Shown one piece after another: positions 8,097 through 34,310 of a stretch of 64,000 bases of DNA (positions within the stretch are counted from its first letter, which is position 1; every line of letters starts with the position of its first letter). This DNA comes from a virus (Duplodnaviria; Caudoviricetes): positions 1,738-65,737 of IMG/VR virus record IMGVR_UViG_3300025450_000002; one strand, given 5' to 3'. The position numbers and the translations under genes are program-made. The notes beneath the pieces were generated by a model. The model had not been told where the DNA came from. It made no database searches and saw nothing but the letters and a program-made list of their open reading frames with translations.

Positions 8097-8111
8097 TTAA
8101 ATGCTCCTTAA

Positions 8112-8981: not shown

Positions 8982-9001
8982 TTAAATCTCCTAAAAAATT
9001 G

Positions 9002-9454: not shown

Positions 9455-9456
9455 TT

Positions 9457-10434: not shown

Positions 10435-10442
10435 ATAACCTC

Positions 10443-10856: not shown

Positions 10857-11046
10857 CTGAGATCTCCAATTTTTGTTTAAGGTCTAACGCATAATTACGT
10901 GCGGTAAGTAGACCTTTAACTTCCCCGCATACTCTTCTATACTCTTCAAAAGTATCAATCCGTCCGTCTGCTAATGCCTCTTGAAGTTGTAAAACCTTTT
11001 CATCTAACTGACGTGCTAGATGATTTAATGCTGTATCAGCATCCAT
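10849..11046 (-). CDS. Small conserved protein downstream of portal
   Basis: 65 aa; EEYRRVCGEVKGL; coupled to portal stop. Confidence 0.7.
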   Translation of the reverse strand: MDADTALNHLARQLDEKVLQLQEALADGRIDTFEEYRRVCGEVKGLLTARNYALDLKQKLEISDE

Positions 11047-13607: not shown

Positions 13608-13616
13608 AATCTATCC

Positions 13617-15155
13617 TTAATAGTAAGCCACTTTTTTGCGGTATTTGTAAAGCAAATTATCTTCTGGTTCATCATTTGGTAGACGTATAAATCCACCCTG
13701 CCTAAATCTTAACAGAGCAAGGGTAGTTGAGTCTACTAAGTCATCATTTAAACCGCTTGGAAAGTCGTTACATTCTTCAATTACATCTTTAGCCCACCTG
13801 TGCGCAGGTGCCCAGACGATTCCTCCCGAGAACAGATCAGAGATAGCATTAACTCGAGCGATTTTGTCTTGACCTTTGCCAGGTGTAAACTCTTGCGCCG
13901 GAATACCCATACGCCTAAACTCTTGATATAGTGCCGCTCCATTGGACTTCTTTTCAACCATGAACGAATCTGGCTGCCATGTCTTATATTCTTCAATACA
14001 AAGCTTCTTGAGTTCCGGAAACTCCATGCGTCTTTTAATCGCATTGAGTAGTATGATGTTGTAATTCCCAACTTCTTCATTGAAGAAAACTCCCCACGTC
14101 GTAAGCGCATTGTAGTCCGAACGATTGTTTGATTCCTGCGCCGCATCGAGCGACATAATAATATACTCACATTGTGGCGGGTCATCTTCCTCCCATATAT
14201 TCCACCATTCCCGTTTGATCAGAGCACCTTCTTCTGACACAGGATTCTGCATGTATTGAGCATTCCAGTATCTAATGTCAAGTACGGCTTTCTTAGCCAG
14301 TAACTCCTCAACCGGCCAAAACTCAGGCCACAAACTTTCGCCGTCATCTTTAATAGCTGGAAACTGAATTACTTCCCACGGTTCAGCATCATCAATATCG
14401 TCCATCTGTTTAAGAATCTGCCCAGTTAGGTCAAGTTTTGACCATCTAGTCATAACAATAATAATAGCGCCACCAGGCATAAGACGTTGCAAAGGACCAG
14501 ATTGAAACCACTCCCAAGCGGGTAAAAATACTTCCGGTCTTCCTGTTTTAGCTTCTTGTTCTGAATGCGGATCATCAATAATAAATAGATCAGCTCCACG
14601 TCCAGCCAGAGCACCACCAACACCAATAGCAAAATATTCACCAAGAAAGTTAGTCCCCCATCGTGATGCCGACTTACTGTCAGCTTGCAATTCTACCTGC
14701 GGAAAAATGTTTTTATACGGATCTGAGCCAACGAGGTTCCTAACACGGCGACCAAAGTTAACAGCCAAATCCGCTGTGTGAGATGCCATAATAATCTTTT
14801 TCTGGGGGTACTTTCCAAGGAACCATGCGGGTGCCAAGTATGAAATGAGCTCAGACTTACCGTGTCGTGGAGCAATATTAACAATGACACGTTTTTTCTT
14901 ACCGTTAGCAATATCTTCAAAAATTTGAGCCAGTTTGAGATGATGTGGCCCGACCTTGTAGCCTGGGTATACGTGTTTAACAAAGTCCAAAAAGGATACT
15001 TTTCCTCGTTCTTGTGTGAGAAACTCATCATATTTCTCCAGTAAATCCTTCGCTTTTCGCTTAATTTCAGGCGGAGTTTTAGGGTTTTTTACCACTAAAC
15101 GTAGTTTAAATAGCTGCTCCTGGGTGAGTTTTAGCTCACTCATTTTTACTTTCAA
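13617..15155 (-). CDS. terL: Terminase large subunit
   Basis: Walker A APRHGKS, Walker B LFIIDDP, coupling motif MTRW, nuclease acidic residues (SLD...DDLVD). Confidence 0.95.
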   Translation of the reverse strand: MKVKMSELKLTQEQLFKLRLVVKNPKTPPEIKRKAKDLLEKYDEFLTQERGKVSFLDFVKHVYPGYKVGPHHLKLAQIFEDIANGKKKRVIVNIAPRHGKSELISYLAPAWFLGKYPQKKIIMASHTADLAVNFGRRVRNLVGSDPYKNIFPQVELQADSKSASRWGTNFLGEYFAIGVGGALAGRGADLFIIDDPHSEQEAKTGRPEVFLPAWEWFQSGPLQRLMPGGAIIIVMTRWSKLDLTGQILKQMDDIDDAEPWEVIQFPAIKDDGESLWPEFWPVEELLAKKAVLDIRYWNAQYMQNPVSEEGALIKREWWNIWEEDDPPQCEYIIMSLDAAQESNNRSDYNALTTWGVFFNEEVGNYNIILLNAIKRRMEFPELKKLCIEEYKTWQPDSFMVEKKSNGAALYQEFRRMGIPAQEFTPGKGQDKIARVNAISDLFSGGIVWAPAHRWAKDVIEECNDFPSGLNDDLVDSTTLALLRFRQGGFIRLPNDEPEDNLLYKYRKKVAYY

Positions 15156-15708
15156 CCTCGTCTATGATCTCTTTTGCTTCTACATCTATGTATTTGTCTT
15201 CTACTTGATCTAATAATTCCATTAATTCAGCTTCAACTTCTTCCATAGTTTGTATTTTTACTGTCACTTCACTGCGTTTCTTAAAAGCATCAATTCCATC
15301 TACTTCGCCTAATACTCTCAAAGCTGATACTTTAGTCTTAACATCTTTAGCTGCCTCAACTGAATGGACTAACTGATTAACTACATATGTTTTTAGCTCA
15401 GATAATTCATCAACTATCTGTACATTCATCTGTGCAACCATACCAGCCAGCATTGCAAGGGTTTCATTGGGGTATTTATTGAATTCTGGGCGGAATTTTG
15501 GGTCTTCAGCCATCTTTACAGCTAATTCTTTAGCATCTTGGACATCATTTTTACTAGGAAGTATAGGTTGACCAGTAAGATCTGCCATTAAAGCAACCAC
15601 ATTGGCACGCATATTGAGTTCTTCTTGGGGTGTTAGAGACGGAAAAGCTTCCTGCGCACTCTTTGGCAGTGTGATATTAGACTCAATTTCTGGGATATAC
15701 GCGTCCAT
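15136..15708 (-). CDS. terS: Terminase small subunit (putative; start set at ATG 15708)
   Basis: Helical ~190 aa protein directly upstream of and overlapping terL. Confidence 0.6.
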   Translation of the reverse strand: MDAYIPEIESNITLPKSAQEAFPSLTPQEELNMRANVVALMADLTGQPILPSKNDVQDAKELAVKMAEDPKFRPEFNKYPNETLAMLAGMVAQMNVQIVDELSELKTYVVNQLVHSVEAAKDVKTKVSALRVLGEVDGIDAFKKRSEVTVKIQTMEEVEAELMELLDQVEDKYIDVEAKEIIDEVESKNE

Positions 15709-15714
15709 AGCAAG

Positions 15715-15744
15715 AGTGTACAACTAATTTAAATTTAGTGTAAA
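15715..15744 (-). promoter_or_regulatory. sigma70-like promoter for terS (possibly leaderless mRNA)
   Basis: TTTACA-N18-TACACT; ATG lies 6 nt after the -10 hexamer; no SD. Confidence 0.5.
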
Positions 15745-16313: not shown

Positions 16314-16352
16314 TACATGGCAGTATGTTCTGCTACTAACAAGGAGAAGTAT

Positions 16353-16517
16353 ATGTTATACACAGTATCAGTATTATGGGGTAATAAAGAAGTAAAGCAC
16401 ACAGCACGCAGTAAGTCTAAGGCTCTTACATGGTTACACAAGTATCCTAACGAAGACATATTCATCAAGGTTACTGATGTGTTCGGTAAGACAGTCGCTG
16501 TTAAATACAAACGCTAA
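16353..16517 (+). CDS. First early protein (54 aa; start corrected)
   Basis: AAGGAGAAGT at 16341 precedes ATG 16353. Confidence 0.7.
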   Translation: MLYTVSVLWGNKEVKHTARSKSKALTWLHKYPNEDIFIKVTDVFGKTVAVKYKR

Positions 16518-16557
16518 TCAACAGGGGGCGAAAGCCCCCATCACTAAGGAGAAGTAT

Positions 16558-16638
16558 ATGGACTATCTATTTCCATTCGTAGCATTCGCAGCATTCATTG
16601 CACTTTTATATCTATTATCAATCAACGAGGAGGAGTAA
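16558..16638 (+). CDS. Early membrane micro-peptide (MDYLFPFVAFAAFIALLYLLSINEEE)
   Basis: AAGGAGAAGT at 16546; single hydrophobic helix. Confidence 0.65.
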   Translation: MDYLFPFVAFAAFIALLYLLSINEEE

Positions 16639-16640
16639 TC

Positions 16641-16856
16641 ATGAGGTTAGTATATGAAACAAGTGGTAACGAAGTACAAGTAGGTGATAAAACATCAACA
16701 TTCAGAGATGAGTTAGTTGAGGTGAAGTATATTACTAAGCCACACAAACCAAGTAGCACAGGTCGTGTAGGTGTGCGGTTTCTAAATGAACAACACACAG
16801 TCGAGTTCTTTCCAGGCGTTATCAATGCCGAGTGGATAGAAAGAGAAGATCGGTAA
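16641..16856 (+). CDS. Early hypothetical protein
   Basis: 71 aa; AGGAGGAGT RBS. Confidence 0.75.
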   Translation: MRLVYETSGNEVQVGDKTSTFRDELVEVKYITKPHKPSSTGRVGVRFLNEQHTVEFFPGVINAEWIEREDR

Positions 16857-16962
16857 CACCAGACCGGCGCAAGCCGGTTTGATACCAGTTACCTATCCCC
16901 GAGCGTGTTAAGCGTGCGTGTGGTCAAGCGTGTTAAATAGAGTTCCACTTAGGCGTGGAAGT

Positions 16963-16995
16963 TTGCATATCAATCAATTTATCAGGTATATATAA
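16963..16995 (+). promoter_or_regulatory. Early sigma70-like promoter abutting a TTCCAC-N6-GTGGAA site
   Basis: TTGCAT-N18-TATATA. Confidence 0.55.
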
Positions 16996-17060
16996 CTTAC
17001 CTAAGCAATATCGTTTAGGTTTTAATCAACGCATTACTTATTTTATAAGGAGAAGTAAAC

Positions 17061-17705
17061 ATGGTTACTAAAACCAAAAACCCCGTATTATCCCTCAACG
17101 TTACATCTTTAAAAGATGGTGCTTATCAACAAGCCAAAGCAAACGATACAATCCGTGTAGTTGCTCGTTATGCTATCAATAACATTGTAGGCTTTCCTGA
17201 AGATATCCCTAAGGAATCTTTAGAGCAGTTGAATGAGGGTTATCTCTTAAGATGGAATGAAAATAATCCCCCTGTTACATACGCCGTTATCAATGACCAT
17301 TTTATTACATACGACGAAGCAATCCATAAGGACTGTGAAAAGCGTGTTATTGGTGCTGATTACATTATGTCATTCAGTGGTCAGGCTTTTGGTGCATTAA
17401 AAGAGTCTGAACCATACTTACATGAGTTGTTAGTTCCAATTCGTAAGAAAATTCAAACTTACTGCAGTAACAGGGTCAACGATTTAAAGCGTGTAGGTAA
17501 ACAGATAGTCAAAGAGTCAGACCCTGCTAGTAATACACGCTCATCAATTAAGAGTTTCAACGAAGTTGTCAAGGAAGTATTCGACGGCAAGAATGGTTTA
17601 GTTGCACGTTGCAAGACTGCTAAAAAGCAACGCAACGATACTGAAGCCGACGAAGTAAAATTAACTCAATCAATTAACGCTTTCATGAAAGTATGGAATA
17701 GTTAA
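17061..17705 (+). CDS. Monocistronic early protein, unknown function
   Basis: 214 aa; own promoter, AAGGAGAAGT RBS and terminator. Confidence 0.8.
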   Translation: MVTKTKNPVLSLNVTSLKDGAYQQAKANDTIRVVARYAINNIVGFPEDIPKESLEQLNEGYLLRWNENNPPVTYAVINDHFITYDEAIHKDCEKRVIGADYIMSFSGQAFGALKESEPYLHELLVPIRKKIQTYCSNRVNDLKRVGKQIVKESDPASNTRSSIKSFNEVVKEVFDGKNGLVARCKTAKKQRNDTEADEVKLTQSINAFMKVWNS

Positions 17706-17715
17706 TTATTTTTAG

Positions 17716-17748
17716 ACCTGATACACGCAAGTGTATCAGGTTTTTTTT
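17716..17748 (+). terminator. Rho-independent terminator
   Basis: ACCTGATACAC-GCAA-GTGTATCAGGT followed by T-tract. Confidence 0.85.
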
Positions 17749-17837
17749 CGTCCGTCAACTATGAAACCAGTTACATATTTGTGCGTGCGTGAGTGTGCAT
17801 CATTTAATTTTATTCTAAATGACAGGATTTACTTTGC

Positions 17838-18424
17838 TTTCCACGTGGACGTGGAAAAATTCCAAGTTTTTGACGTCGCCCTCATGTGTTCGACAAAAAA
17901 ATTCTAGAATTTTTATAACAACTTGGAATTTTTTTCGCTTGTAACTTATTGATTTAGTTAAACAATAAAAAAAATTCCAAAAATTCCAACTTTTTTTGGG
18001 AGTATGTCAGGTTAAAAGCAGTTTTTTTCATATCAAGAGAGTCTTGCATAGAGTGCATATTAGTAAATAAAAAAATCGCCTGCAAAGTCCCGTATACTTA
18101 AAAAAACATGGAATTTTTGGAATTTTTGGAATTTTTTATATATTATTATTATTATTATTATTATTTAATTAATAAATACAAGGACTTAGCGATTTTCACC
18201 AACAAAAAATCAAGCACTTACCTCAACCCCAAACTTGGAATTTTTCTTAGAATTTTCCATCAAACTTGGAATTTTTTACCCACCACCTCAAACTAACTAA
18301 ATAAACTAAAGGGGTATTGTTATATGTAAAGTTATGTTATACTTATAACAGATGGGAGAAGTAAATTAACTCACCATCTACTTAGCGTCGTATTTTTATT
18401 TAATCTTCCACGTCCACGTGGAAA
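17838..18424. other. Putative replication origin: iterons, IHF sites, AT-rich core, terminal 19-bp inverted repeat
   Basis: About 11 copies of TTGGAATTTT/AAAATTCCAA in both orientations; (TAT)8 at 18141-18164; IHF consensus at 17942 and 18208. Confidence 0.65.
18315..18356 (+). promoter_or_regulatory. Early promoter, near-duplicate of the one at 19814
   Basis: Extended -10 TG-T-TATACT; shared ATATGTAAAGTTAT..TATACTTATAACAG.TGGGA. Confidence 0.65.
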
Positions 18425-18440
18425 ACCTTAGGAGAATGTC

Positions 18441-18638
18441 ATGGATAACAACCAAACTGCATTGAACGCTGTATTAACTTATAGACTCAAGAACACACAG
18501 GCTATCATCGAGGAGATTTTTACCCCAATGCAACGTGCTGAACTGCAACAACGTATTGACTCACTTCGTGCTATCCAAGTTGAAGACGAATACATACAAC
18601 AGAATGTAGTTGACTACATGGTAACGACCTTTCGCTAA
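18441..18638 (+). CDS. Early hypothetical protein
   Basis: 65 aa; AGGAGAA RBS. Confidence 0.7.
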   Translation: MDNNQTALNAVLTYRLKNTQAIIEEIFTPMQRAELQQRIDSLRAIQVEDEYIQQNVVDYMVTTFR

Positions 18639-18717
18639 TTAGTTTTTCACTACATGGTGGAACGTAAAACTTCCACCTATTCCATTTCTATTTATCTATT
18701 TTTATTTAGGAGAAGTT

Positions 18718-18930
18718 ATGAGTGCAATCAAAAGACAATACATGAACTGGTGCGAGCAACACAATATAGAACCTGAAGATGACCTTGCATGGCTTCACAA
18801 AGCAGTCGAGCAACCACAATGGGTCAACGACTTTAACAACTGGCTAGACCAAATCACTTATAAGCATCCACTATCAGATGGAGAACTAAATGACATGAAC
18901 AACACGAACATGGAGAACGACAATGATTGA
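18718..18930 (+). CDS. Early hypothetical protein
   Basis: 70 aa; AGGAGAAGT RBS. Confidence 0.7.
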   Translation: MSAIKRQYMNWCEQHNIEPEDDLAWLHKAVEQPQWVNDFNNWLDQITYKHPLSDGELNDMNNTNMENDND

Positions 18931-19141
18931 TGAATCTTTTACACCACAGTGCAAGTTATGTGGTTCTATCTATGATAAGCGTCGCTTTGATATAGGATTC
19001 TTATTCTGCATGCCATGTGGTAACGACGTAGCCAAGCAAGTCAAACGCACAGTAGTGCCAATGCACAAATCAAACTACATGATGGTCACAAACCGAGATG
19101 ACTTAATCGGTATTAACAACAAGGGAGGACTTGTCAAATGA
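18923..19141 (+). CDS. Zinc-finger early protein (CxxC...CxxC, DksA/TraR-finger-like)
   Basis: CKLCG...R...G...CMPCG...PMHKSNY. Confidence 0.7.
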   Translation: MIDESFTPQCKLCGSIYDKRRFDIGFLFCMPCGNDVAKQVKRTVVPMHKSNYMMVTNRDDLIGINNKGGLVK

Positions 19142-19171
19142 TAACCAATGAACAGAAGAAAGGGGAGTGAA

Positions 19172-19627
19172 ATGGGATATAGGTCAGCAGTAGCATACAC
19201 GATCAGGTTTATACCTGATGAAAACGAGAAGCCTTTAGGCAAGGTGCGTGATTCATTTTATACATTCTTAGCCGAAGCGAAAGCCAAGACAGAAACACAG
19301 TTATGTTTCGACGAAGACCAAGCCATGAATGTCAAAGAGGAAAATGGCGAGGGGTTTTATGTTAATGAGCAAGAGATGAAGATTGACTTCCTTGCGTGGC
19401 ACGTCAAGTGGTATGACGGCTATCCTGATGTCGATTGTCATGAAGCGTTACTCTCATTAGCGCAAGAGTGGTGCGAAGATGAAGCGACAGGTAACCCATA
19501 TATCGGTGGTGCTTATGTAAGGATTGGCGAGGAAGTAGATGACAACGACGAGCGATGGTTTGGAACTGCCGAGAGCGACTGGTTATCTATCAGTAGAACT
19601 ATATGTAGAGATGGGAAAGAGATATGA
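19172..19627 (+). CDS. Early hypothetical protein (MGYRS...KWY...VRIGEE family; start corrected)
   Basis: GGGGAG RBS before ATG 19172. Confidence 0.7.
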   Translation: MGYRSAVAYTIRFIPDENEKPLGKVRDSFYTFLAEAKAKTETQLCFDEDQAMNVKEENGEGFYVNEQEMKIDFLAWHVKWYDGYPDVDCHEALLSLAQEWCEDEATGNPYIGGAYVRIGEEVDDNDERWFGTAESDWLSISRTICRDGKEI

Positions 19628-19803
19628 GAATAACAGTTGAAAGACGTAGCGTGTATGGCAACGAGATGATATACCCCAAGTGCGAGACTGCGAAACTATT
19701 GGCGAAACTAGCCAACCATGTGACGCTAACCAAGCATGATATATCAGTTATTAAACAATTAGGCTATGAAGTTGTATGCCTAGCAAACGAAATAACTTTA
19801 TAG
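19624..19803 (+). CDS. Small early protein (59 aa, MRITVERRSVYGNEMIYPKC...IKQLGY)
   Basis: Missed by ORF track; ATGA overlap with upstream stop. Confidence 0.7.
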   Translation: MRITVERRSVYGNEMIYPKCETAKLLAKLANHVTLTKHDISVIKQLGYEVVCLANEITL

Positions 19804-19813
19804 AATAAAAGAC

Positions 19814-19856
19814 TTGTATAATATGTAAAGTTATAGTATACTTATAACAGTTGGGA
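19814..19856 (+). promoter_or_regulatory. Early sigma70 promoter
   Basis: TTGTAT-N17-TATACT. Confidence 0.7.
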
Positions 19857-19867
19857 AAGGAATATTT

Positions 19868-19960
19868 ATGTTAGAAGATATCGTAGTGAAGTTAGTAATC
19901 GTAGGTGCTTTAATCTATTTAGCCTTCCACGTTATAGTGGATTTTCATTTAATCAATTAA
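19868..19960 (+). CDS. Membrane micro-peptide (30 aa, MLEDIVVKLVIVGALIYLAFHVIVDFHLIN)
   Basis: AAAGGA RBS; hydrophobic; directly after promoter. Confidence 0.55.
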   Translation: MLEDIVVKLVIVGALIYLAFHVIVDFHLIN

Positions 19961-19969
19961 GGAGAAGTT

Positions 19970-20896
19970 ATGGACAGTATTAGAACCAACCTAGAAATGC
20001 CTGAGCATTTAATCTCACTAGCGACAAGCGCAGTATTAGTAAGCGTCGATGTCAGCGTGTGGTCAGCAACGAAACAAGATAGGGGTATCAGTGATGAGGT
20101 TACTACATCAAAGAATGCAGACAAGTCGGCAGGTCGCTACGTTAAGAATCTATTGGCGAACCACCCGTCGCACAAAGCCATTGTGAATTATAGGCAGACT
20201 ATATATAACTGGCTTCAGCGTCGCACTTATAAGTGGAATCAGTCACAAGAATTACTACCATGCGTTGACCTACCCAAGTTTAAGCAAGAGTGGCATGAAC
20301 ATGAAACTGCGTTCCACGTCCTCGTGGATACGTTTAAGAACCAGTATGATTCTATCGTATCGGATATGGCTTTCAAACAAGGTGATATGTTTAACAGAAA
20401 TGATTATCCACCCAAAGAACAGATTACATCAAAGTTTAGTCTTAACTTGTATGTGAGCGAAGTGCCTGTTAATGACTTTAGATGCAATATTGCAAGGGAT
20501 ATCGCAGATGATCTTTTTAGTTCATTGTCCAAGCAATCCAAGTCAATTATAGAGAACATAGCGAACGAACAAGTCGAAAGGCTAATAGATGTGATGCAGA
20601 GTATCTCGCATTGTTGTGGTGTGGACGAGTTAGTTCCGAAAGATGGTGGTGAAATAAAAACCAAGCGTCGCAAGATATACGATACGACGATACAGAAAGC
20701 GTTAGAGATGTGTGAGAGTTACAAAGTATTTAATCTTAAGCATGATAACGAGCTAGAACTGGCACGTGCATCGCTAGAGAAAGTCTTACATGGTGTTACG
20801 GCAGAGGATATCCGAGATAGTGACGCTGTGCGTTCCAATGTCAAAGAGGGGGTTGATGGCATTTTGTCGAAGTTCGGTGCATTTAGTTGTGTATAG
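19970..20896 (+). CDS. Helical early protein (DUF3150-like) associated with the AAA/vWA pair
   Basis: VSVWSATKQD...KNLL...GDMFNRNDYP pattern; AAGGAGAAGT RBS. Confidence 0.6.
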   Translation: MDSIRTNLEMPEHLISLATSAVLVSVDVSVWSATKQDRGISDEVTTSKNADKSAGRYVKNLLANHPSHKAIVNYRQTIYNWLQRRTYKWNQSQELLPCVDLPKFKQEWHEHETAFHVLVDTFKNQYDSIVSDMAFKQGDMFNRNDYPPKEQITSKFSLNLYVSEVPVNDFRCNIARDIADDLFSSLSKQSKSIIENIANEQVERLIDVMQSISHCCGVDELVPKDGGEIKTKRRKIYDTTIQKALEMCESYKVFNLKHDNELELARASLEKVLHGVTAEDIRDSDAVRSNVKEGVDGILSKFGAFSCV

Positions 20897-20904
20897 GAGG
20901 TTTC

Positions 20905-21045
20905 ATGGATGAAGCATTAATGCAGTTTTATGAATGGAAAGAATGGGCAGTGCCATTCACACCCGAAGGGGAAAAGTTGTATGAAGCACAGAAGACAAGC
21001 TGGTTGGCTTGTTGGGAATTTTTAACTAATCAAAAGGAGAAGTAA
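20905..21045 (+). CDS. Small Trp-rich early protein (46 aa)
   Basis: AGGAGG RBS; fills gap; stop abuts next ATG. Confidence 0.65.
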   Translation: MDEALMQFYEWKEWAVPFTPEGEKLYEAQKTSWLACWEFLTNQKEK

Positions 21046-22119
21046 ATGAGTAAAATGAATTTTGTTCCAACAGTATCTATCAACGAGTTGCGTAAACTCA
21101 TTCCTGTAATAGCATCAGAATTGACAGTAGTCATAACTAGCGAACCTGGTTGTGGCAAGACAAGTCTATTAAAAATGATGGAAGAAGATCTTGGAGATGC
21201 TTACCAATATATCTACGTTGACTGTCCTGTAAAAGATATGTCAGACATAGGTATGACAATACCGAACCACACTACCAAGACCCTTGAGTATTATGTGTCT
21301 AGTCTATTCTGTTTAGATGACCCAAGACCTAAGGTTATTTGTCTAGACGAGTTCATGAAGTCACCCAAGTTATTGCAAGTTATCTTTACTCGCATGATGT
21401 TAGATAAAATGGTAGGCGATGTTCCACTACCACGTGGAAGCCTAATCTTTGCAACGAGTAACAATGCTTCCGATGGTGTAGGCGACTCAATGCTTGCTCA
21501 TGCTGGCAATCGTGTATGTAAGGTAGAGATGGCAAAGCCTGATACTAATACTTGGCTTCAATGGGCATCAGATAATAATATCTCTCGTGTTGTCAGAGCG
21601 TTCGTTGCGTTGTTCCCAAGAGTTCTCGCATCATATAGAGATGGCAACCAAGACGATAACCCATACATCTTCAAACCTAACATGAACACCTTGTCATTCT
21701 GTTCGCCTCGTTCCTTAGCGAAGTGCGACGTGATTGTAAAGAATAGAGATGTCTTAGGTGAGAATGCAACAATGGTCGCACTTGCAGGCACTATCGGTCA
21801 GAGTGCATCGGCAGATATGTCAGCGTTTCTATCGCTAGAGAAAACCTTAATAGATGTAAAAGATATTCTCAAAGCACCAGAGTTAGTAAAGATACCTGAC
21901 GAGATATCAGCGCAGTTAATGATTATGTTTCAGGCAGTAGATGTATTAGAGACGCAAGACGAGTTGACGAAGTTCATGTCATTCGTTAATAAGATTCCTA
22001 GTTCAGAAGTCCAAGCCGTATTCTTTACTATGATGATGCGTAATGCAAAGGCAATTAAGTTGGCTCGCAATAATGCACAGATTGCAGAGTGGGCTAAGAA
22101 CAACCATGAATTATTTTAA
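21046..22119 (+). CDS. MoxR-like AAA+ ATPase
   Basis: Walker A EPGCGKT, Walker B ICLDE, ATSN sensor 1, SPRS sensor 2. Confidence 0.85.
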   Translation: MSKMNFVPTVSINELRKLIPVIASELTVVITSEPGCGKTSLLKMMEEDLGDAYQYIYVDCPVKDMSDIGMTIPNHTTKTLEYYVSSLFCLDDPRPKVICLDEFMKSPKLLQVIFTRMMLDKMVGDVPLPRGSLIFATSNNASDGVGDSMLAHAGNRVCKVEMAKPDTNTWLQWASDNNISRVVRAFVALFPRVLASYRDGNQDDNPYIFKPNMNTLSFCSPRSLAKCDVIVKNRDVLGENATMVALAGTIGQSASADMSAFLSLEKTLIDVKDILKAPELVKIPDEISAQLMIMFQAVDVLETQDELTKFMSFVNKIPSSEVQAVFFTMMMRNAKAIKLARNNAQIAEWAKNNHELF

Positions 22120-22129
22120 GGAGAAGTAA

Positions 22130-22336
22130 ATGTTAAAGACATTAAATATAACAGACGAAGAGTTTACTAGATTAACAGACCAAGCAACAATAGATATGTA
22201 TGAAGAATACTTATCGGAATCAGAAGATAAAGTCACTAGCGATCTTCGTGAAGACACATTCATCAATGGGTTTCGATTAGGTATGAAATTCGTAGCCTTA
22301 TTAATTAAGAAACAGATAGAAGGAGAAAGTAAATGA
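22130..22336 (+). CDS. Early hypothetical protein
   Basis: 68 aa; AAGGAGAAGT RBS. Confidence 0.7.
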   Translation: MLKTLNITDEEFTRLTDQATIDMYEEYLSESEDKVTSDLREDTFINGFRLGMKFVALLIKKQIEGESK

Positions 22337-22527
22337 TTACGATAACACCAAGCGAGTTTATTTTAATAATATGGGGGATAGTTATGACTGTCTTATGGCA
22401 AAGAGCATTATACAAGTCAGAGGAGTTCAAACAGTTTACAGTTCGCAAGTTGCAAGAGATTGTGAAAGGCGAAGCGAAGATTGTAGACAATGGCGAATCA
22501 ATCCAAATAATTAGGATAAAGGACTAA
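22333..22527 (+). CDS. Small membrane protein
   Basis: N-terminal TM helix; AAGGAGAAAGT RBS. Confidence 0.65.
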   Translation: MITITPSEFILIIWGIVMTVLWQRALYKSEEFKQFTVRKLQEIVKGEAKIVDNGESIQIIRIKD

Positions 22528-22529
22528 TC

Positions 22530-23819
22530 ATGGAAATGAAAAACAAACAGGAAACAAGACTGAAGAAAGCACATATCGCATTGATGAAACACCCTGAGAC
22601 TGCGTTGTATTCAGGTGTGATGCTTATGGGTAAGAGCGAGATAGCGGACGAAGTATTTACTGCATATACAGATGGTGTGAACAAGAGATATTCTAAGCCA
22701 TTCGTTGAGAAAATACTTATCGAAGCGAAGTTGCGTGGCTTAGTCTTGCATGAGAATCTTCACGTTGCATTGAAACAGATTCCAAGAGGTAAGGATATGT
22801 TCAAGGAAGATAGACAGATTGCAAACATGGCAGCCGACTTTGTGGTCAACGACATAATAAAGAATATTACAGGAACAGTTGCGAATGGTCACGAGCCTAT
22901 CGTAGAGTTACCTGATGGTGCGTTGTATGACTCATTCTTTCATAATTGGTCGATGCGTGAAGTATATAACCACATACGCAAAGAGAATCCTCAGCGACAG
23001 AAACCTAGTGATAGCTCATGTGATGAGCCTACCAAAGGCGATGGAGATGAAGATAGTAGTCCACGTGGTAGTGGAACGATATATGCGAATGGCAAGCCTT
23101 ATGATATTGGGCATCAATTCGATGAACATGACTGGGAATCGTATGTCGAAGGACTCAGCGACGAGGAACGCAAGGAGTTGGGAGATAAGATTGACCGAGC
23201 CTTGCGTGAGGGTGGTATGCTTGCAGGTCGTATGGGTGGCAAGATGCCTAGACAGATTAGTGACTTGCTTGAACCGAGAGTAGATTGGCGAGAAGTCTTG
23301 CGTGAGTTTGTCGCTTCCACGATGAAAGGGAACGATGAATACACATGGCGCAAGATGAGTAAGCGTCACATGGCTAATGACATTTATCTACCAAGCATGG
23401 AGAACGAGACGATCGGTGAGGTTGTCGTTGCGATAGATACTTCAGGTTCAATCGGTGAGCGTGAGTTGACAGAGTTTGCAACGGAACTGGCATCAATCGT
23501 CGATCTTGTGTCGCCTGAAGCAGTTAGAGTTATATGGTGGGATTACGATGTTCATGGTGAGCAATACTTCAAGCCTGAACATTACAGAGATATTGCATCA
23601 TTACTAAAACCCTTAGGTGGTGGTGGCACTAGAGTCTCATCAGTCAACCATTACATCAATGAGAAGAAGATTAACGCAGAGTGTGTCATCGTGTTTACCG
23701 ATGGTTATGTAGAAAGTGACATCGAGTGGACAATCTCTTCCCCTACCCTGTGGATGGTAACTCAGAACAAAGCACTTGAAGTCCCATCAGGTAAGAAAGT
23801 CGTAGTTAACAATGATTGA
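22530..23819 (+). CDS. DUF2201-type metallopeptidase plus vWA domain protein
   Basis: TAYTDG, HENLH (HExxH), MIDAS DTSGS, GGGGT, VFTDG. Confidence 0.85.
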   Translation: MEMKNKQETRLKKAHIALMKHPETALYSGVMLMGKSEIADEVFTAYTDGVNKRYSKPFVEKILIEAKLRGLVLHENLHVALKQIPRGKDMFKEDRQIANMAADFVVNDIIKNITGTVANGHEPIVELPDGALYDSFFHNWSMREVYNHIRKENPQRQKPSDSSCDEPTKGDGDEDSSPRGSGTIYANGKPYDIGHQFDEHDWESYVEGLSDEERKELGDKIDRALREGGMLAGRMGGKMPRQISDLLEPRVDWREVLREFVASTMKGNDEYTWRKMSKRHMANDIYLPSMENETIGEVVVAIDTSGSIGERELTEFATELASIVDLVSPEAVRVIWWDYDVHGEQYFKPEHYRDIASLLKPLGGGGTRVSSVNHYINEKKINAECVIVFTDGYVESDIEWTISSPTLWMVTQNKALEVPSGKKVVVNND

Positions 23820-24120
23820 AGTATTCACCAATTACGTAAGAGCAAACGCTCGAGTTAATTATGTTAATGGAGAGATAGCGTATTCACGTGATTGGCAAAC
23901 CCAATTTATAAGGATATGTATGCCTGATGGAAAAGAACAATGGTATAGCACCAATGCGAATGACCCTAGATTTGCAAACGATATAACAGAGTTGTTAAAA
24001 GAAACGCATGGGGATAGAGCATATTTCTATGCGTTGGAAAGAGTAGTTAGTGAGAGTAGTAGTAAGGAAGAAGTAAAACTATGGAAAGCAGTATTAACTT
24101 TATTAGACAAGGAGAAGTAA
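23812..24120 (+). CDS. Early hypothetical protein
   Basis: 102 aa, in operon. Confidence 0.6.
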   Translation: MIEVFTNYVRANARVNYVNGEIAYSRDWQTQFIRICMPDGKEQWYSTNANDPRFANDITELLKETHGDRAYFYALERVVSESSSKEEVKLWKAVLTLLDKEK

Positions 24121-25164
24121 ATGGATAGCACATTGAATTGGAATAGACTTACAAACATAACTAAAACTGTGAAACCCTTTCGTGGAACAACCAATAGGTT
24201 TCCTATCGCTAATAGATCTCATAATACAAAGTGTTTTTATGTAGAAGAGTTAGATGGCGAAACTGTATACCGAGTGACGTATGGCTATCATTACAAAGAA
24301 ATCTTCCATACTAAAGAAGAATGGGAGAAAGACCCAAATAAAATCTCTTGTAGAGACTGGGAAGAAGATGAGAGCAAGAAGTATGTTACCTACACTACTA
24401 TACCTAGAGACTTAGGCATCGTGCGTTCTGACAACACGTTTCAGTTTACTGCCAAATACTACGGACAAGGTGACAATACTATGCTTAGTGGTTGGGGGCA
24501 AGGTTGGTTCTTTAGTAGTTCACGTCATGGTGGAATGGTATATATGAACGCATACAGAGGTGATGATAGAAGTATCTTTCATCCGATATTCGAAGGTATG
24601 CGAATCAACATGAATACTATGATGCCCCATGAATCTTCTAACTATCAAGTGTTAGGTAGACGTGTATCACGTATTGATGCCAAGAAGTTTTTAACTAGAT
24701 ACGAAACATTCTACAAAGTAAATGAGGTTATGTTCAAAACGATTGATTGGAAGACATTGATGGATACGGCAGTCGACGTAGTAAGTTCATTGGTAGATGA
24801 AAGTGAGTTACAAAACTATTACATCAGTAGCACATCAAACGAGAAAATAATAACGTGGGCAGACGATAACATTGACGTAGCACCACTTGACTCAGCCCTA
24901 GCATTTGCAGTTGGGCATGACATAGGTAATATGTATCGACGAATGAGAGCGCACGCTATTGACTCAAACAGTAATCAATTCCGTTGGATGGATTCAGAGC
25001 CAATGAATCTCTACGCAAATCTCAAGCGTAAGTTGAATCATGAACTATACAAGCGTCACCATGGAGTAATGAAAGACGTTACGTTCCCGATGGGCAAACC
25101 ATATCCAGCAAGTAACTGGGGGATACGAGTTATGGTTGATGGTAAAGAAGTAAAACAATACTAA
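24121..25164 (+). CDS. Early hypothetical protein
   Basis: 347 aa; AAGGAGAAGT RBS. Confidence 0.8.
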   Translation: MDSTLNWNRLTNITKTVKPFRGTTNRFPIANRSHNTKCFYVEELDGETVYRVTYGYHYKEIFHTKEEWEKDPNKISCRDWEEDESKKYVTYTTIPRDLGIVRSDNTFQFTAKYYGQGDNTMLSGWGQGWFFSSSRHGGMVYMNAYRGDDRSIFHPIFEGMRINMNTMMPHESSNYQVLGRRVSRIDAKKFLTRYETFYKVNEVMFKTIDWKTLMDTAVDVVSSLVDESELQNYYISSTSNEKIITWADDNIDVAPLDSALAFAVGHDIGNMYRRMRAHAIDSNSNQFRWMDSEPMNLYANLKRKLNHELYKRHHGVMKDVTFPMGKPYPASNWGIRVMVDGKEVKQY

Positions 25165-25172
25165 GGAGAATC

Positions 25173-25490
25173 ATGGTTGAAATAGAAAAAGTAGAGATGC
25201 CCTACAAGGAATACGTTATTTCGGACAAGGTAGACGAGAGCCTAGCATATCTTTCTAACTATACTGCTCGACGTGTTAGGTATAAGTTTCCTAATGGATA
25301 CGGCGCTAGTGTTGTTATGGGTAATTTGTTTTATTCCGATGAGGGGACAGGTTTATATGAATTATGTCCCATGAAAGATAATGCGTTGTGGTATGACGCA
25401 GTAGACCCTAGCAACAATGATGTGTATGGGTATCTCAATGATGAAGAGTTATATATTTTATTAACGAAAATTTTAACGAAGGAGAAGTGA
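25173..25490 (+). CDS. Conserved phage protein (YKFPNGYGASVV family)
   Basis: Characteristic FPNGYGASV...GLYEL...DVxGYL pattern. Confidence 0.75.
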   Translation: MVEIEKVEMPYKEYVISDKVDESLAYLSNYTARRVRYKFPNGYGASVVMGNLFYSDEGTGLYELCPMKDNALWYDAVDPSNNDVYGYLNDEELYILLTKILTKEK

Positions 25491-25491
25491 A

Positions 25492-26427
25492 ATGAAATAC
25501 GCAATAGAAGGAATTACAAAGCAAGCAACAATAGACTATATCGAGAGTTCACCAGTAAAGAAACTCATATATGAATTGAATTACAAGTATGGCTTAAAAG
25601 CGTTGACTGTAATAGCAGTCGAAAAACGAGGGGAAAATGTCCGTCACGAGGTTGTGTTAACCGACCCTATGGGTGGGTTTGCCGTAGGTAGAGTATGGAC
25701 AACAGTAGACAATAAAGACATCGTGTATCACTATCGTTCGCCTTACGCTTCAAAGGATAGAGGTAGGACTAGTGAGGATAGAGAAACTTATTATGGTAAG
25801 AAATTATCATCTTTGATGAGTGTGCTAAAAACTAACGAAGTAATACCTACTAAAGATAGTCCACAACTATTAACTATTCATAATCGTATTTTCGCCAATG
25901 CTAATTACTCTTTACAAGAAACACACGGTAAACACAGAAAAGATGTAGAGTTAACTTTAGATGAACAACATTCTTTATTGAGATACGCACTAGGTGAAAC
26001 TACTACTCTATTTGATGAAAATAAATGTAAAAAAATACTTGACAAATATAATACGTTAGATAAAATAAAACAAGAATCAGACGAAGATGTAGATAGGTTC
26101 TTCAACAAAGGTTTCTATGCAGTTGGTGTAGATATGTTTAATCATTTAATAGTGGGGAAAGTTGTGAAAAATAAATCTAGTTACGAAATAGTAGAATCAT
26201 TCGAGAGGGTGATGGACTTCAGTAAGCATGAACATCTACAAGCAATCATGACTATGCAAAAAGTTTATCATGAGCAACAAGGTAAATACACTAAGTTCTA
26301 CGGAAATTACATTCCACTATACAGTGGATACCTAAAAGACCTAGACATCATTCAGATGAATAATCGTGAGCCACACATTCATGACTTAGCTTGGACTCTT
26401 ATCCCATGCACAGCACTTTCCGTATGA
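25492..26427 (+). CDS. Early hypothetical protein
   Basis: 311 aa; AAGGAGAAGTG RBS. Confidence 0.8.
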   Translation: MKYAIEGITKQATIDYIESSPVKKLIYELNYKYGLKALTVIAVEKRGENVRHEVVLTDPMGGFAVGRVWTTVDNKDIVYHYRSPYASKDRGRTSEDRETYYGKKLSSLMSVLKTNEVIPTKDSPQLLTIHNRIFANANYSLQETHGKHRKDVELTLDEQHSLLRYALGETTTLFDENKCKKILDKYNTLDKIKQESDEDVDRFFNKGFYAVGVDMFNHLIVGKVVKNKSSYEIVESFERVMDFSKHEHLQAIMTMQKVYHEQQGKYTKFYGNYIPLYSGYLKDLDIIQMNNREPHIHDLAWTLIPCTALSV

Positions 26428-26777
26428 AGATAGAAATGCTTAGCCCAATAGCACATCAATATACACATGGGCTATATCGTGTGCCGTTACATAAAGACGG
26501 AAATCATTACACACTATTTGTAGCCGATGGGTATAAGAGAGACTTTGACGAGAACACTTTACCTGATGAGATCAAAACTAAGATAGCCATGATACTTGCG
26601 AGAGATAAACAAATCGCACATGACCATGAGTTAACACACTTAGGATTGATGGCATCTGTAAAAGATGATGCGTTAATAGACGTGGGGTGGCAAAGGAGTG
26701 AAAGTTGGTTCATCATCGTGTTACCCATAGCATCGTTAATGAAACTAAGAGGAGAGAATAATGGCGCAGACACCTGA
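26424..26777 (+). CDS. Hypothetical protein (start set at ATGA overlap)
   Basis: Open frame coupled to upstream stop. Confidence 0.65.
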   Translation: MKIEMLSPIAHQYTHGLYRVPLHKDGNHYTLFVADGYKRDFDENTLPDEIKTKIAMILARDKQIAHDHELTHLGLMASVKDDALIDVGWQRSESWFIIVLPIASLMKLRGENNGADT

Positions 26778-27069
26778 AGCAAAAGTTAAAAAGAAAGTAA
26801 AACAGTATCTTACCACTAGAGGTATTTATTTTACTATGCCGTTCACTGCTGGTTTTGGGGCGAACGGAGTGCCTGACATACTTGTGTGTTATCAAGGAAA
26901 GTTTATAGCGATAGAGTGCAAGGCTAATGGCAACAAGCCAACAGCATTACAAGGAGAACACATGAAGAGAATTCAACGTGGGGGTGGAACGGCAGTTGTC
27001 GTTGATGAAAGGAATGTCGACACAATGCTAGAGGGATTATTTGATGATACAGATGATGGGAGATGCTAG
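26761..27069 (+). CDS. VRR-NUC family nuclease
   Basis: TPEAKVK...GVPDI...IECKA...PTALQ...GG. Confidence 0.85.
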   Translation: MAQTPEAKVKKKVKQYLTTRGIYFTMPFTAGFGANGVPDILVCYQGKFIAIECKANGNKPTALQGEHMKRIQRGGGTAVVVDERNVDTMLEGLFDDTDDGRC

Positions 27070-27084
27070 ATAACTGGCTTCAAT

Positions 27085-27306
27085 ATGACCGACCAAGATA
27101 AAGAATATTTAAGAGATTTGTTTGCGTGCTTCGCCATGAATGCGATAGTAAGTCGAGGTATAAGAGAAGAGATAGTAGATAGTGTTGCAGAAAACTCTTA
27201 TATGATGGCAGACGCTATGATGGAAGCCCGCAACAAAAAAGAACCCAAGATGGGTATAACCGCAGTAAACCAACCTAAGAGGAGAAGTAGAAATGAAAGT
27301 AAGTAA
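27085..27306 (+). CDS. Conserved small phage protein (RDxFAxxAM...YxxADAM family)
   Basis: Recognisable motif; 73 aa. Confidence 0.7.
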   Translation: MTDQDKEYLRDLFACFAMNAIVSRGIREEIVDSVAENSYMMADAMMEARNKKEPKMGITAVNQPKRRSRNESK

Positions 27307-27748
27307 AATCCAAGCAGTAAAAAACTTGATGGACAAAAACCCTAGCATGACCGCATCTGAGATATCCAAGAAGTTAGGAATTAAGATTGGCTATGTCTAC
27401 ACAATGATGTCTAAGATAAGAAAACCAAAATTTGATATTAAAAAGATAGAAGCCGTTTTACAGGAAGAAGCATCACCCCCAGTAAGCGTCGAACAGGTAA
27501 AAGATTTTGTATATAGCATTTCACTAGGACGTGGAACAGTAGATAACGTCAATCATCCATCCCATTACAAGACAGGTGGCATTGAAACAATCGACTTCAT
27601 TGAAGCGAAGCAGTTGGGATACCATCTCGGTAACGTCGTCAAATATATTACTAGAGCAGACCACAAGGGTAACAAGTTGGAAGACTTGATGAAAGCCCAA
27701 TGGTATTTGAGCCGTGCGATAGAGAACGAGGAGAAGAATAATGGATGA
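27293..27748 (+). CDS. HTH plus DUF3310 (T7 gp1.7-like nucleotide kinase) protein
   Basis: N-terminal ASEISKKLG HTH; VNHPSHY...ETIDFI...GNVVKY...EDLxKAxWYL. Confidence 0.8.
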   Translation: MKVSKIQAVKNLMDKNPSMTASEISKKLGIKIGYVYTMMSKIRKPKFDIKKIEAVLQEEASPPVSVEQVKDFVYSISLGRGTVDNVNHPSHYKTGGIETIDFIEAKQLGYHLGNVVKYITRADHKGNKLEDLMKAQWYLSRAIENEEKNNG

Positions 27749-28127
27749 AGGATTTGTAATATTACTACTGGCAGGTATCCTTGTTGTAACTAGTGGTATT
27801 GGTGGATGTATGTATGGGATGCCTAAATACAATGTCTATCATCAACAGATGGAAGGCGAAGCCGAATTAGCGAAAGCAAACTTTAGCAAACAAACTGCTA
27901 TACAAGAAGCCCACGCTAAGATGGAATCCGCTAAGTTGCTTGCAGACGCAGAAGTGATCAGGGCTGAAGGAGTTGCAAAAGCTAATAAGATCATTGGCGA
28001 TAGCTTGAACAACAACGAAGCGTATTTGCGATATCTGTATATCAATAATCTTGAACACACGCAGAATCAGATTATCTATGTGCCGACTGAAGCGAATCTA
28101 CCTATTTTAGAAGCAAAGCGTAAGTAA
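27741..28127 (+). CDS. Membrane protein with SPFH/band-7-like coiled coil
   Basis: N-terminal TM helix; AEVIRAEGVAKANKII...YVPTEANLPI. Confidence 0.65.
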   Translation: MDEGFVILLLAGILVVTSGIGGCMYGMPKYNVYHQQMEGEAELAKANFSKQTAIQEAHAKMESAKLLADAEVIRAEGVAKANKIIGDSLNNNEAYLRYLYINNLEHTQNQIIYVPTEANLPILEAKRK

Positions 28128-28133: not shown

Positions 28134-28167
28134 GGGGGGTAAGGTTCATGCCTTGCTCCCCTTTTTT
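28134..28167 (+). terminator. Rho-independent terminator
   Basis: GGGGGTAAGG-TTCATG-CCTTGCTCCC followed by T-tract. Confidence 0.75.
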
Positions 28168-29160: not shown

Positions 29161-29555
29161 CAGCAAATGAATTAATAGATAAGTTAGAAAGTGTAAGTAT
29201 TAGATTGCTGGGTAAAGAAACTGAGCAAGCAGGTAGAGCTATTATTCTTTACAGAGAATCAGCGATTATGCTACTCCAACAAGCCCAAAAAATAGAAGCG
29301 TTGAAAAAAGAACTAGCACTACAAAGACTATCTGATTTTAGTCAAGAGATTGAGGATAGGGAATCTGCTATATACGCAACTGGCTATTGGAAAGGCATTG
29401 AGTATAAAAAAATGCGTGAATTAAGTGATGCAACAATACGAGAACTGTCAGTTGCTTTTATGTTGGTATTACGCAGAACTCCTGAAGATGAACTTTTTGA
29501 AAATGTATATGAATATTCAAAATTACTATTAAAGAAAGCGAGTAGTGAGAAATGA
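29157..29555 (+). CDS. Hypothetical protein
   Basis: 132 aa; ATGA overlaps at both ends. Confidence 0.7.
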   Translation: MTANELIDKLESVSIRLLGKETEQAGRAIILYRESAIMLLQQAQKIEALKKELALQRLSDFSQEIEDRESAIYATGYWKGIEYKKMRELSDATIRELSVAFMLVLRRTPEDELFENVYEYSKLLLKKASSEK

Positions 29556-29698
29556 CACCTAGAGAAGAACTTGTTTACAAATTACGCAGTGAAGGAATGA
29601 TATACAGATTAATAGGTGAACAGCTTGGGGTTACAGGTGTAAGAGCGAATCAAATTTACAAAAAATGCCTAAGAAAAAATGCTAAGAAAGGCGAGTGA
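29552..29698 (+). CDS. Mini sigma70 region-4-like HTH protein (48 aa)
   Basis: Missed by ORF track; MTPREELVYKLRSEGMIYRLIGEQLGVTGVRANQIYKKCLRK. Confidence 0.7.
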   Translation: MTPREELVYKLRSEGMIYRLIGEQLGVTGVRANQIYKKCLRKNAKKGE

Positions 29699-32680: not shown

Positions 32681-32980
32681 ATGGCTAAGAAGAAACTGGA
32701 AGTAGCAGTGCCAGCTATCAAAGAGAAGTCTGGTAAAGTTGTCAAAGCGCCGAGCAAGGCATGGTCGCATGATGAGTTGATTGCTAAAGAGGGCAAAAAA
32801 GCTAAAGGCGCTAAACACGAGTTTGCATTAACTGATGGAGAAGTAGTTAATCGCAAGAAGGCTGCGAAGGTAGCAGAGAAAGCAGGTGAAGTTCCCAAGT
32901 CAGTAGGTAAGAAACTTCATAGCCATGACTTACGCAAGGCGGCCCGCATTAAAAAGATCAAAGAGAGTAGCATAAAATGA
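32681..32980 (+). CDS. Lys-rich hypothetical protein (start likely 32681)
   Basis: AAGG RBS before ATG 32681; FxxTDGxxVNRxxAxxxA...LHSHDL. Confidence 0.6.
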   Translation: MAKKKLEVAVPAIKEKSGKVVKAPSKAWSHDELIAKEGKKAKGAKHEFALTDGEVVNRKKAAKVAEKAGEVPKSVGKKLHSHDLRKAARIKKIKESSIK

Positions 32981-33162
32981 GTAAAGAACGCATGTCTTTA
33001 GAAGAAATACTTGGTCGGCAAAACAACATGACACAGCATGAGGTTGCTGAAGCACTAGGAATATCTAGATCGCAAGTCGATACTTTAGAGAAACTTGCGT
33101 TGCGAAAATTAAGGCATTATTTAAAGCAAAAAAACTATACCAAAGAAGACTTTTTAGTGTAA
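32977..33162 (+). CDS. Mini sigma70 region-4-like HTH protein
   Basis: MTQHEVAEALGISRSQVDTLEKLALRKLR. Confidence 0.8.
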   Translation: MSKERMSLEEILGRQNNMTQHEVAEALGISRSQVDTLEKLALRKLRHYLKQKNYTKEDFLV

Positions 33163-34169: not shown

Positions 34170-34310
34170 TTTGTTACGTCGGACGTCGTAAGGCATGAGT
34201 GGACTAAAACCATGTCAGTTGAGCGGTGAACTGAAGACTAGTGTAACCCCATTAGCACTTCTCCTTGCACGACAGGCTCAACCGATTAACTCCCGTAAGG
34301 AGTTGTTAAA
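34170..34310 (+). ncRNA. Putative structured sRNA presenting an anti-Shine-Dalgarno loop complementary to early-gene RBSs
   Basis: Stems GGCAUG/CAUGUC, GUUGAGC/GCUCAAC, GUGUAA/UUGCAC, AACUCC/GGAGUU; ACUUCUCCUU (34257-34266) is the reverse complement of AAGGAGAAGU. Confidence 0.6.

Follow-up and report, generated by a model that had tools for sequence, protein, structure and literature searches.

The DNA examined here, called the window, is a stretch of 64,000 nucleotides of the IMG/VR phage record IMGVR_UViG_3300025450_000002 (Duplodnaviria; Caudoviricetes), which is complete at 65,737 bases and has direct terminal repeats. A plus-strand block (16.3-40.9 kb) begins with small genes of unassigned function, an ATPase/DUF2201 pair and a gene for a DUF3310 protein, and continues with genes for a DNA polymerase, a PD-(D/E)XK exonuclease, a helicase (34329) and a primase. 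The minus strand (1-15723 and 40854-64000) encodes the terminase, portal, capsid, tail fibres, lysis proteins and a 2248-aa virion protein. This report concerns a short sequence, AAGGAGAAGT, that stands directly 5' of start codons in the first part of the plus-strand block, and its relation to a structured RNA in the leader of the helicase gene.

Results

A tag at gene starts

The tag is defined as the 10-mer AAGGAGAAGT; the 9-mer AGGAGAAGT was used for counts by gene class. The exact 10-mer is present in nine copies in the window against 0.13 expected, and none of 100 shuffles reaches nine. Eight copies are on the plus strand and one (34257-34266) is on the minus strand. The 9-mer is present in 12 copies (0.28 expected), which are the nine sites of the 10-mer and three further plus-strand sites at 18708, 27280 and 63452. 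All ten plus-strand tags between 16.3 and 27.3 kb end 1-4 nt 5' of an ATG. The copy at 63452 (+) heads no gene and falls within coding sequence of the minus strand. A first-pass annotation, made from the letters of the window alone, had reported a shared tag in front of these ten genes. That observation is confirmed for all eight 10-mer and both 9-mer positions; the copies at 34257 (-) and 63452 (+) were not among its sites.

The tags, all on the plus strand, are distributed as follows. Those at 16341-16350 and 16546-16555 each end 2 nt 5' of an ATG, at 16353 (a 54-aa open reading frame, ORF) and 16558 (a 26-aa micro-ORF), respectively, and a GC hairpin, GGGGGCGAAAGCCCCC, lies just 5' of the second (16524-16539, +). 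The tag at 17047-17056 ends 4 nt 5' of ATG 17061 (214 aa), the 9-mer at 18708-18716 1 nt 5' of ATG 18718 (70 aa), and the tag at 19959-19968 1 nt 5' of ATG 19970 (308 aa). A distance of 2 nt separates the tags at 21034-21043, 22118-22127 and 24109-24118 from ATG 21046 (the 357-aa ATPase, phrog_1297), ATG 22130 (68 aa) and ATG 24121 (347 aa). The tag at 25479-25488 ends 3 nt 5' of ATG 25492 (311 aa), and the 9-mer at 27280-27288 ends 4 nt 5' of ATG 27293 (151 aa, DUF3310). The 26-aa micro-ORF (16558-16638) is predicted by its tag and is merged by ordinary ORF lists into a 53-aa frame that starts at 16477; it is an example of how the tag would aid the annotation of gene starts.

Six near variants also precede ATGs on the plus strand. 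Five have one or two mismatches: GAGGAGGAGT at 16627, AAGGAGAAAG at 22320, AAGGAGAATC at 25163 and GAGGAGAAGA at 27728 have two each, and AAGGAGGAGT at 28447 has one. The sixth, TAGGAGAATG at 18429, is weaker, with three. All six had been noted in the first pass, with small offsets in position.

The tag is restricted to one class of genes. With gene starts that were curated by hand and chosen partly by their Shine-Dalgarno (SD) sequences, the 9-mer heads 10 of the 24 genes between 16.3 and 28.1 kb, none of the 20 plus-strand genes between 28.2 and 40.9 kb and none of the 45 minus-strand late genes (10/24 vs 0/65 other genes, Fisher p 3.9e-7). The tag is therefore not equally frequent before middle and late genes, and its confinement to the beginning of the non-structural block, as first described, stands. 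When all AGGAG sites before an ATG are considered, the AAGT extension follows 10 of the 34 on the plus strand and one of the 20 on the minus strand, the latter being the copy at 34257. The later plus-strand genes and the late genes have AGGAG followed by other bases, again as first described. The 24 genes of this first part are presumably early and are called early below, and the 20 later plus-strand genes are called middle.

The 30-nt upstream flanks of the ten tag sites have no common sequence, which indicates that the unit is the 9-10-mer itself. By its sequence, the tag is an SD core (AAGGAG) with a private extension of four nucleotides. The tagged block is bounded by terminators: a terminator-like hairpin with a T-run (17714-17743, +) closes the first tagged operon, and a strong terminator-like hairpin of 12 pairs followed by TTTTTT (28134-28161, +) lies directly 3' of the last gene of the block (27741-28127).

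A structured RNA in the helicase leader

The helicase has more than 600 hits, and the 160-nt gap on the 5' side of its gene is conserved among relatives. This gap contains an element that an anchored search recovered from 39 of 161 sources, namely the window and 160 loci; 38 different loops are represented. The element occurs once per complete genome examined and always 5' of the helicase gene. No copy was found in G016 (81% complete), and some more distant helicases (e.g., L164 and L167) lack the element on their 5' side. In the 70.7-kb record G010, from which locus L108 derives, two identical copies lie near the two ends (3697 and 67574), which would fit either a long terminal redundancy or a concatemer from the assembly.

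In the window the element begins 3' of the upstream stop codon with hairpin A (34185-34204, +), a covarying stem of 3-5 bp that closes the conserved loop GUAAGGCAUGAGUG. The structured core (34208-34286, +) consists of the anchor AACCAUGUCA, helix P1 (34214-34224 with 34276-34286), helix P2 (34226-34228 with 34268-34270) and the inner hairpin P3 (GAAG 34233-34236 with CUUC 34258-34261). Within the core is ACUUCUCCUU (34257-34266, +), the exact complement of the tag and its sole reverse copy in the window, here called the anti-tag. Its CUUC (34258-34261) is paired in P3 and its 3' UCCUU is mostly unpaired. Hairpin P4 (34288-34304, +; AACUCC-CGUAA-GGAGUU, in which the CGUAA loop is invariant) follows the core, and the GTG start of the helicase (34329, +) is 3' of P4. 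The element also includes a variable G/C hairpin. The motif of hairpin A occurs once in the window, which rules it out as a repeated phage promoter.

The helices are supported by covariation. In an alignment of 21 sequences, the 19 pairs of P1, P2 and P4 are 94.0% paired and 13 of them have changes on both sides. None of 500 shuffles reaches any of these measures, and controls in which the alignment was slid are 27-42% paired. RNAalifold independently recovered P1 and P4. In the loop between the P2 strands, 30 of the 38 distinct variants contain CTCC, against 8.4 in composition-preserving shuffles (maximum 18, n=1000), and 24 of the 38 contain TCTCC (2.6 in shuffles). The loop of lineage G005 has CCTCCTT, identical to a stretch of the 16S tail.

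In folds of seven members of the clade with the AAGT tag, P3 is formed by ACUUC and the upstream GAAG(U). Six of these folds contain UCCUU, which is unpaired with P 0.85-1.0 in four of them and with P 0.43-0.87 in the window and L129; the clade member L093 has UCCGG in its place. In these predicted structures the paired ACUUC and the mostly free UCCUU have the geometry of a toehold.

No Rfam family was found for the window or for five relatives. The window gave one match at E values up to 10, to a snoRNA on the other strand (34050-34118), which is attributed to chance. The element is thus a strongly covarying RNA motif of several helices that has no Rfam family.

Pairing of the tag with 16S rRNA and with the loop

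Pairing energies were calculated for two partners, a canonical tail taken from actual 16S ends and the 13-nt loop segment around 34257-34266. Tagged sites pair with the 16S tail at about -8 kcal/mol and with the loop segment at about -14 kcal/mol. The AAGT extension contributes no pairing with the canonical tail, in agreement with the original remark that 16S pairing does not need it. Sites that reach -12 kcal/mol or lower with the loop segment precede 13 of the 24 early genes, 1 of the 20 middle genes and none of the 45 late genes (Mann-Whitney p 6e-6). Pairing with the canonical tail is itself somewhat better at early sites (mean -7.6 vs -6.1 at late sites, p 0.017).

An unusual host 16S 3' end had been named at the outset as a competing explanation. 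A genome collection covering 185,579 species has no match for a 16S-like end with the complement ACTTCTCCTT, while the canonical end, the positive control, was matched at least 120 times. Because 16S genes are missing from many metagenome-assembled genomes, the negative is strong evidence and not absolute. The extension is most likely not read by 16S rRNA, as judged from these comparisons.

Conservation of the tag in relatives

Conservation was followed in 80 related loci centred on the ATPase gene. AGGAGAAGT is present in three or more plus-strand copies in 14 of the 80, and these 14 have no minus-strand copy. In the tagged loci it is the commonest or second commonest 9-mer, and a start codon always follows it. 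Homologs of gene 25492 have the exact 10-mer in 11 of 17 cases, despite N-terminal identities down to 37-47% and differing flanks. For the ATPase itself, in the 40 rows considered of 77, the 10-mer precedes six homologs and AAGGAGAAGC precedes five; the others have AAGGAGT.. or no SD sequence. Gene 28460, which has AAGGAGGAGT in the window, has a 98%-identical homolog with the exact tag and a 97%-identical homolog with neither, so the tag has been gained or lost between proteins of 97-98% identity. The tagged genes 22130, 16558 and 18718 have 0-1 homologs in the 80 loci, and neighbouring genes vary between close relatives at tagged junctions. As far as these comparisons go, the tag is maintained by selection where it is present, and it is quick to turn over and independent of particular gene families. 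In the window it is, on the same grounds, kept before about 10 genes (about 16 with the variants) of the first 12 kb of the non-structural block.

Variation of tag and loop

A flank-shuffle test was applied to 15 genomes. CTCC was held fixed, the rest of the loop was shuffled 500 times, and sites that start with GGAG on the strand of the element were scored when they shared 9 nt or more with the complement of their own loop. G000 has 10 such sites (null 0.25), and G001, of the same clade, has nine. G003 has four (p 0.004; AGGAGAGAG vs CUCUCUCC), and G014 has three (p 0.002), every match being 10-12 nt long. G004 has two at 10 nt or more (p 0.016), and G005 and G010 are borderline. Nothing significant was found in G002, G006, G007, G008, G009, G013, G015 and G017. 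When G000/G001 and G009/G010 are each counted once, three of the 13 lineages are at p 0.004 or lower. On the late strand, 13 of the 15 genomes have no match of 9 nt or more; G004 has one and G008 has three.

The sister lineage G021 provides a case in which tag and loop both differ. Among its 24 AGGAG..ATG sites are four copies of AGGAGAAGC, with AAGC, and three of AGGAGAAGT, with AAGT. Its loop is GCUUCUCCUU, with GCUU, and the changed base is a G, which is able to pair with both C and U. The genomes G000 and G001, with an ACUU loop, have no AAGC sites, and AAGC is not among the top extensions of G024, which also has an ACUU loop. A comparison of own and other loops on helicase-centred loci gave only a weak difference (0.088 vs 0.036), as little of the early block falls within those loci. 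Across the relatives, tag and loop probably change together.

Comparison with the start-associated sequences of cluster K

Start-associated sequences (SAS) are known from cluster K mycobacteriophages. In the available part of the account by Pope et al. (2011; PMC3203893), the SAS is a 13-bp asymmetric repeat of 11-19 copies, confined to the non-structural half of the genome and located 3-7 bp 5' of mostly ATG starts. Some of its positions are unable to pair with 16S rRNA, it is tied to varying gene families, and its function was left open ("either RNA or protein"). Papers from 2024-2025, in the parts available, still call its function unknown. About half of the SAS are reported there to have upstream 17-bp imperfect inverted repeats, the extended SAS (ESAS; PMC3203893).

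The first-pass annotation had remarked on the likeness, and every positional feature that was tested agrees. Both are short asymmetric AGGAG repeats with conserved positions unable to pair with 16S rRNA. Both have about 10-19 copies in the non-structural part only (here ten 9-mers and six variants, 16.3-28.5 kb), a few nucleotides 5' of mostly ATG starts (here 10/10 at 1-4 nt), and both are attached to varying gene families among related phages. Each has one orientation, with a single reverse copy away from gene starts (here 34257-34266, intergenic), and in both the reverse copy is within the loop of an RNA hairpin.

The hairpin of cluster K was identified in Mycobacterium phage Anaya, which has 16 forward SAS and one reverse SAS (up to two mismatches). 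The reverse SAS lies in the 385-nt non-coding gap between gp96 and gp97, 3' of a terminator, and makes up the loop, CCUCCUAUCC (10 nt), of a hairpin with the strands GCGCGG/CCGCGC that tops a longer stem (59839-59914; 12840-12915 of locus L354; fold z -4.29). Conservation of the gap region extends to 138 Mycobacterium phage records, some of which annotate a hypothetical protein over the hairpin. Hairpin and loop are kept in five of six aligned diverged phages, with three compensatory pairs; Keshu differs.

The two repeats nevertheless differ in several respects. There is no sequence relation, and the tag has 9-10 nt against 13. The cluster K consensus GGGATAGGAGCCC has five matches in the window (up to three mismatches; 5.9 expected), none of them at a tagged start. 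No ESAS-type 17-bp inverted repeats were found upstream of the ten sites, and no such family in 15.7-19.0 kb. Hosts and phage families are unrelated. Given the absence of the consensus and of ESAS, the tag is an analog of the SAS and not a member of that family.

Other features of the genome

The sequencing runs that contain the window are freshwater and lake metagenome DNA runs. No close isolate was found: the nearest large terminases (about 48-50% identity) are those of phage DSL-LC04, 023Pt_psg01 and the Pelagibacter phages HTVC027P and HTVC023P, and the DNA polymerase has about 36% identity with that of Pseudomonas phage KPP25. The tagged block had no match in a megablast search of 50,697 phage records, and a tRNA scan found no tRNA. 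The 2248-aa protein of the virion block (40854-47600, -) has no PHROG match; LPD38, close to the C-terminus, is its sole recognised domain. Two tiny proteins of 48 and 61 aa (29552-29698 and 32977-33162) match only Sigma-70 region 4 / helix-turn-helix domains; they are possible phage transcription factors for a middle or late switch.

Between the first terminator and gene 18441 there are about 700 nt of mostly non-coding DNA (17744-18440), in which AAAAATTCCAA / TTGGAATTTTT recurs about ten times and in either orientation. The palindromic TTCCACGTGGACGTGGAA is present at 17838 and 18406 and, in diverged form, at 16943. Two related 9-mers, TTGGAATTT and AAATTCCAA, are the commonest words in the relatives L013, L016 and L018. 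The array resembles an array of iterons or operators and is possibly an origin or an early control region.

Discussion

Overall, AAGGAGAAGT is interpreted as an SAS-like tag that would be read by the loop of a phage RNA 5' of the helicase gene, so that the tagged class is switched together. The probability of this interpretation is put at roughly one half. It builds on the motif and its position, the selection acting on it, the RNA structure, the complementarity and the co-variation, all of which come from comparison of sequences. The most likely partner of the tag is the loop of the helicase-leader RNA, which would display an anti-SD-like UCUCCUU and has, in the window, the full complement ACUUCUCCUU. 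The first-pass annotation had predicted that the tagged genes are the targets of this RNA at 34.2 kb. The exact complementarity, the location of the complement in the loop of a covarying structure and the co-variation of tag and loop support this; the 10 of 13 lineages without a private tag do not. Its interpretation as a whole is therefore partly supported, and each of its statements about the sequence itself held.

We infer transcription of the RNA, its pairing in vivo and the direction of its effect as follows. The helicase-leader RNA would be made when the replication genes are transcribed. Its single-stranded UCCUU would dock on the AAGGA of tagged ribosome sites, and pairing would extend through ACUUC, displacing the inner GAAG(U) strand of the RNA itself. 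The resulting duplex of 10-11 bp would be about 6 kcal/mol stronger than the pairing of the ribosome and would occlude the ribosome site, and the tagged class would be shut off together. Activation of the class instead of shut-off is an alternative. Equally compatible with the sequences is the reverse logic, in which tagged mRNAs would open P3 and tune translation of the helicase.

The nearest known RNAs in principle are the C-rich or UCCC-loop RNAs RsaE and RNAIII of Staphylococcus, which, as described in the available part of PMC2790875, pair with SD sequences and keep the initiation complex from forming. Like the helicase-leader RNA, they are structured and have a conserved pyrimidine-rich motif that is unpaired and complementary to the SD sequences of several targets. 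They differ in that the helicase-leader RNA is encoded by a phage, is located in a 5' leader without proven ends of its own and is known from sequence alone, and in that its putative targets have a private extension, which brings the pairing to 10-11 bp. Literature searches returned, by title or abstract of the papers listed, none on a phage anti-SD RNA, and none that proposes a complementary RNA partner for the SAS, for which only the 2011 paper matched.

Several observations weigh against control of the tagged genes by this RNA. Ten of the 13 independent lineages have the same RNA and no significant private extension, so the CUCC loop must also serve a function that is independent of the tag; cis pairing with the SD-like AAGGGG of P4 or with the ribosome site of the helicase is suggested. 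The strongly tagged genomes are all in one clade, and the match between tag and loop therefore rests on few events (AAGT, AAGC, G003, G014 and G004). Since these are also partly related by descent, the link between tag and loop is probable and not proven. Within the tagged block, 11 of the 24 genes have no strong complementarity to the loop. The 5' part of the anti-tag is paired in P3, and access to it requires strand displacement. The fold of the 181-nt intergenic region is not unusually stable (z -0.19), so stability alone fails to flag the RNA. A scan for promoters and terminators found no convincing pair that would delimit a small RNA, and the element may be merely a 5' leader. The 20 sequencing runs covering 26.5-36.4 kb are all of freshwater or lake DNA, with no RNA run among them. 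Finally, one regulator molecule per ribosome site is demanding in terms of stoichiometry.

An alternative that is unlikely but deserves weight is that the tag is an efficient ribosome-binding cassette, a strong SD with a purine-rich spacer, which selection and junction copying have spread among highly expressed early genes. The leader loop would then mimic an anti-SD and act purely in cis, its match to the extension being a by-product. The 10 lineages that retain the RNA without a private tag fit this explanation, as do the need for the ACUUC of the loop in its own P3 helix, the distance of 1-4 nt from tag end to ATG, which places the SD in the optimal range, and the somewhat better pairing of tagged sites with the canonical tail. 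What a spacer optimum predicts, however, is neither one exact 4-mer at variable distance from the ATG nor different 4-mers in sister lineages. The AAGC/GCUU change and the matches of 10-12 nt in G014 and G004 are likewise unpredicted, and untagged relatives make do with AAGGAGT.. or weaker sites for translation of these genes.

Rather improbable is recognition of the tag in RNA by a phage or host protein, such as a RegB/S1-like endoribonuclease or a RegA-like repressor, that would inactivate early messages. The model would be T4 RegB with S1, whose 11-nt single-stranded site, in the available text of PMC1702504, has a 5' GGA and an A-rich downstream part and is found in ribosome sites of early mRNA, where it marks the early class for inactivation. 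GGAGAAGUAAA matches this form, and the early genes here have a similar extended signature, GGAGAAGU with A-rich spacers. Most of the early proteins have no known function and could include such a reader, but no member of the RegB family or other RNase was found among 47 plus-strand ORFs (PHROGs) or 44 ORFs (Pfam). The reader in T4 is a protein nuclease, whereas a complementary RNA loop is present here; a protein site would leave that mirror copy and the co-variation unexplained.

The probability is lower still that the tag acts as DNA, either as an asymmetric operator like the stoperators of cluster A or as microhomology for the exchange of cassettes between phages. Its SD core, fixed orientation and distance of 1-4 nt from the ATG point to translation, its reverse copy lies in an RNA loop with covarying stems, and the G of the G021 loop, which tolerates both C and U, follows an RNA-type rule. 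These features stand against its location at gene junctions where the neighbours differ between close relatives, its appearance and loss between proteins of 97-98% identity, and the scarcity of homologs of genes 22130, 16558 and 18718, all of which a role in DNA would accommodate. Pairing of the extension with an unusual host 16S 3' end, for which there is room in that the host of this freshwater metagenome phage was not identified, is largely refuted by the search of 16S ends, by the 45 late genes of the same phage without the extension and by the sister phages that use AAGC or none.

If the tag is read by the helicase-leader loop, control by tag and anti-tag could be a general and undescribed phage strategy, in which a private label on the ribosome-binding sites of a whole class of non-structural genes would be read, through a toehold, by one phage RNA with the mirror sequence in a hairpin loop. 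The SAS might likewise be read, through the conserved hairpin near the right end of the genome. This extension is put forward tentatively and is less probable than the reading of the tag itself. The phage family of the window is unrelated to cluster K, and it shows an SAS-type phenomenon together with a concrete candidate for the reader RNA; the same architecture, a tag and its mirror copy in a hairpin loop, is present in phage Anaya. The SAS have been known since 2011, and the proposed pairing of tag and loop turns an open question into simple experiments. If it is true, a phage-encoded translational switch acting on a whole class of genes would join the known means of temporal gene control.

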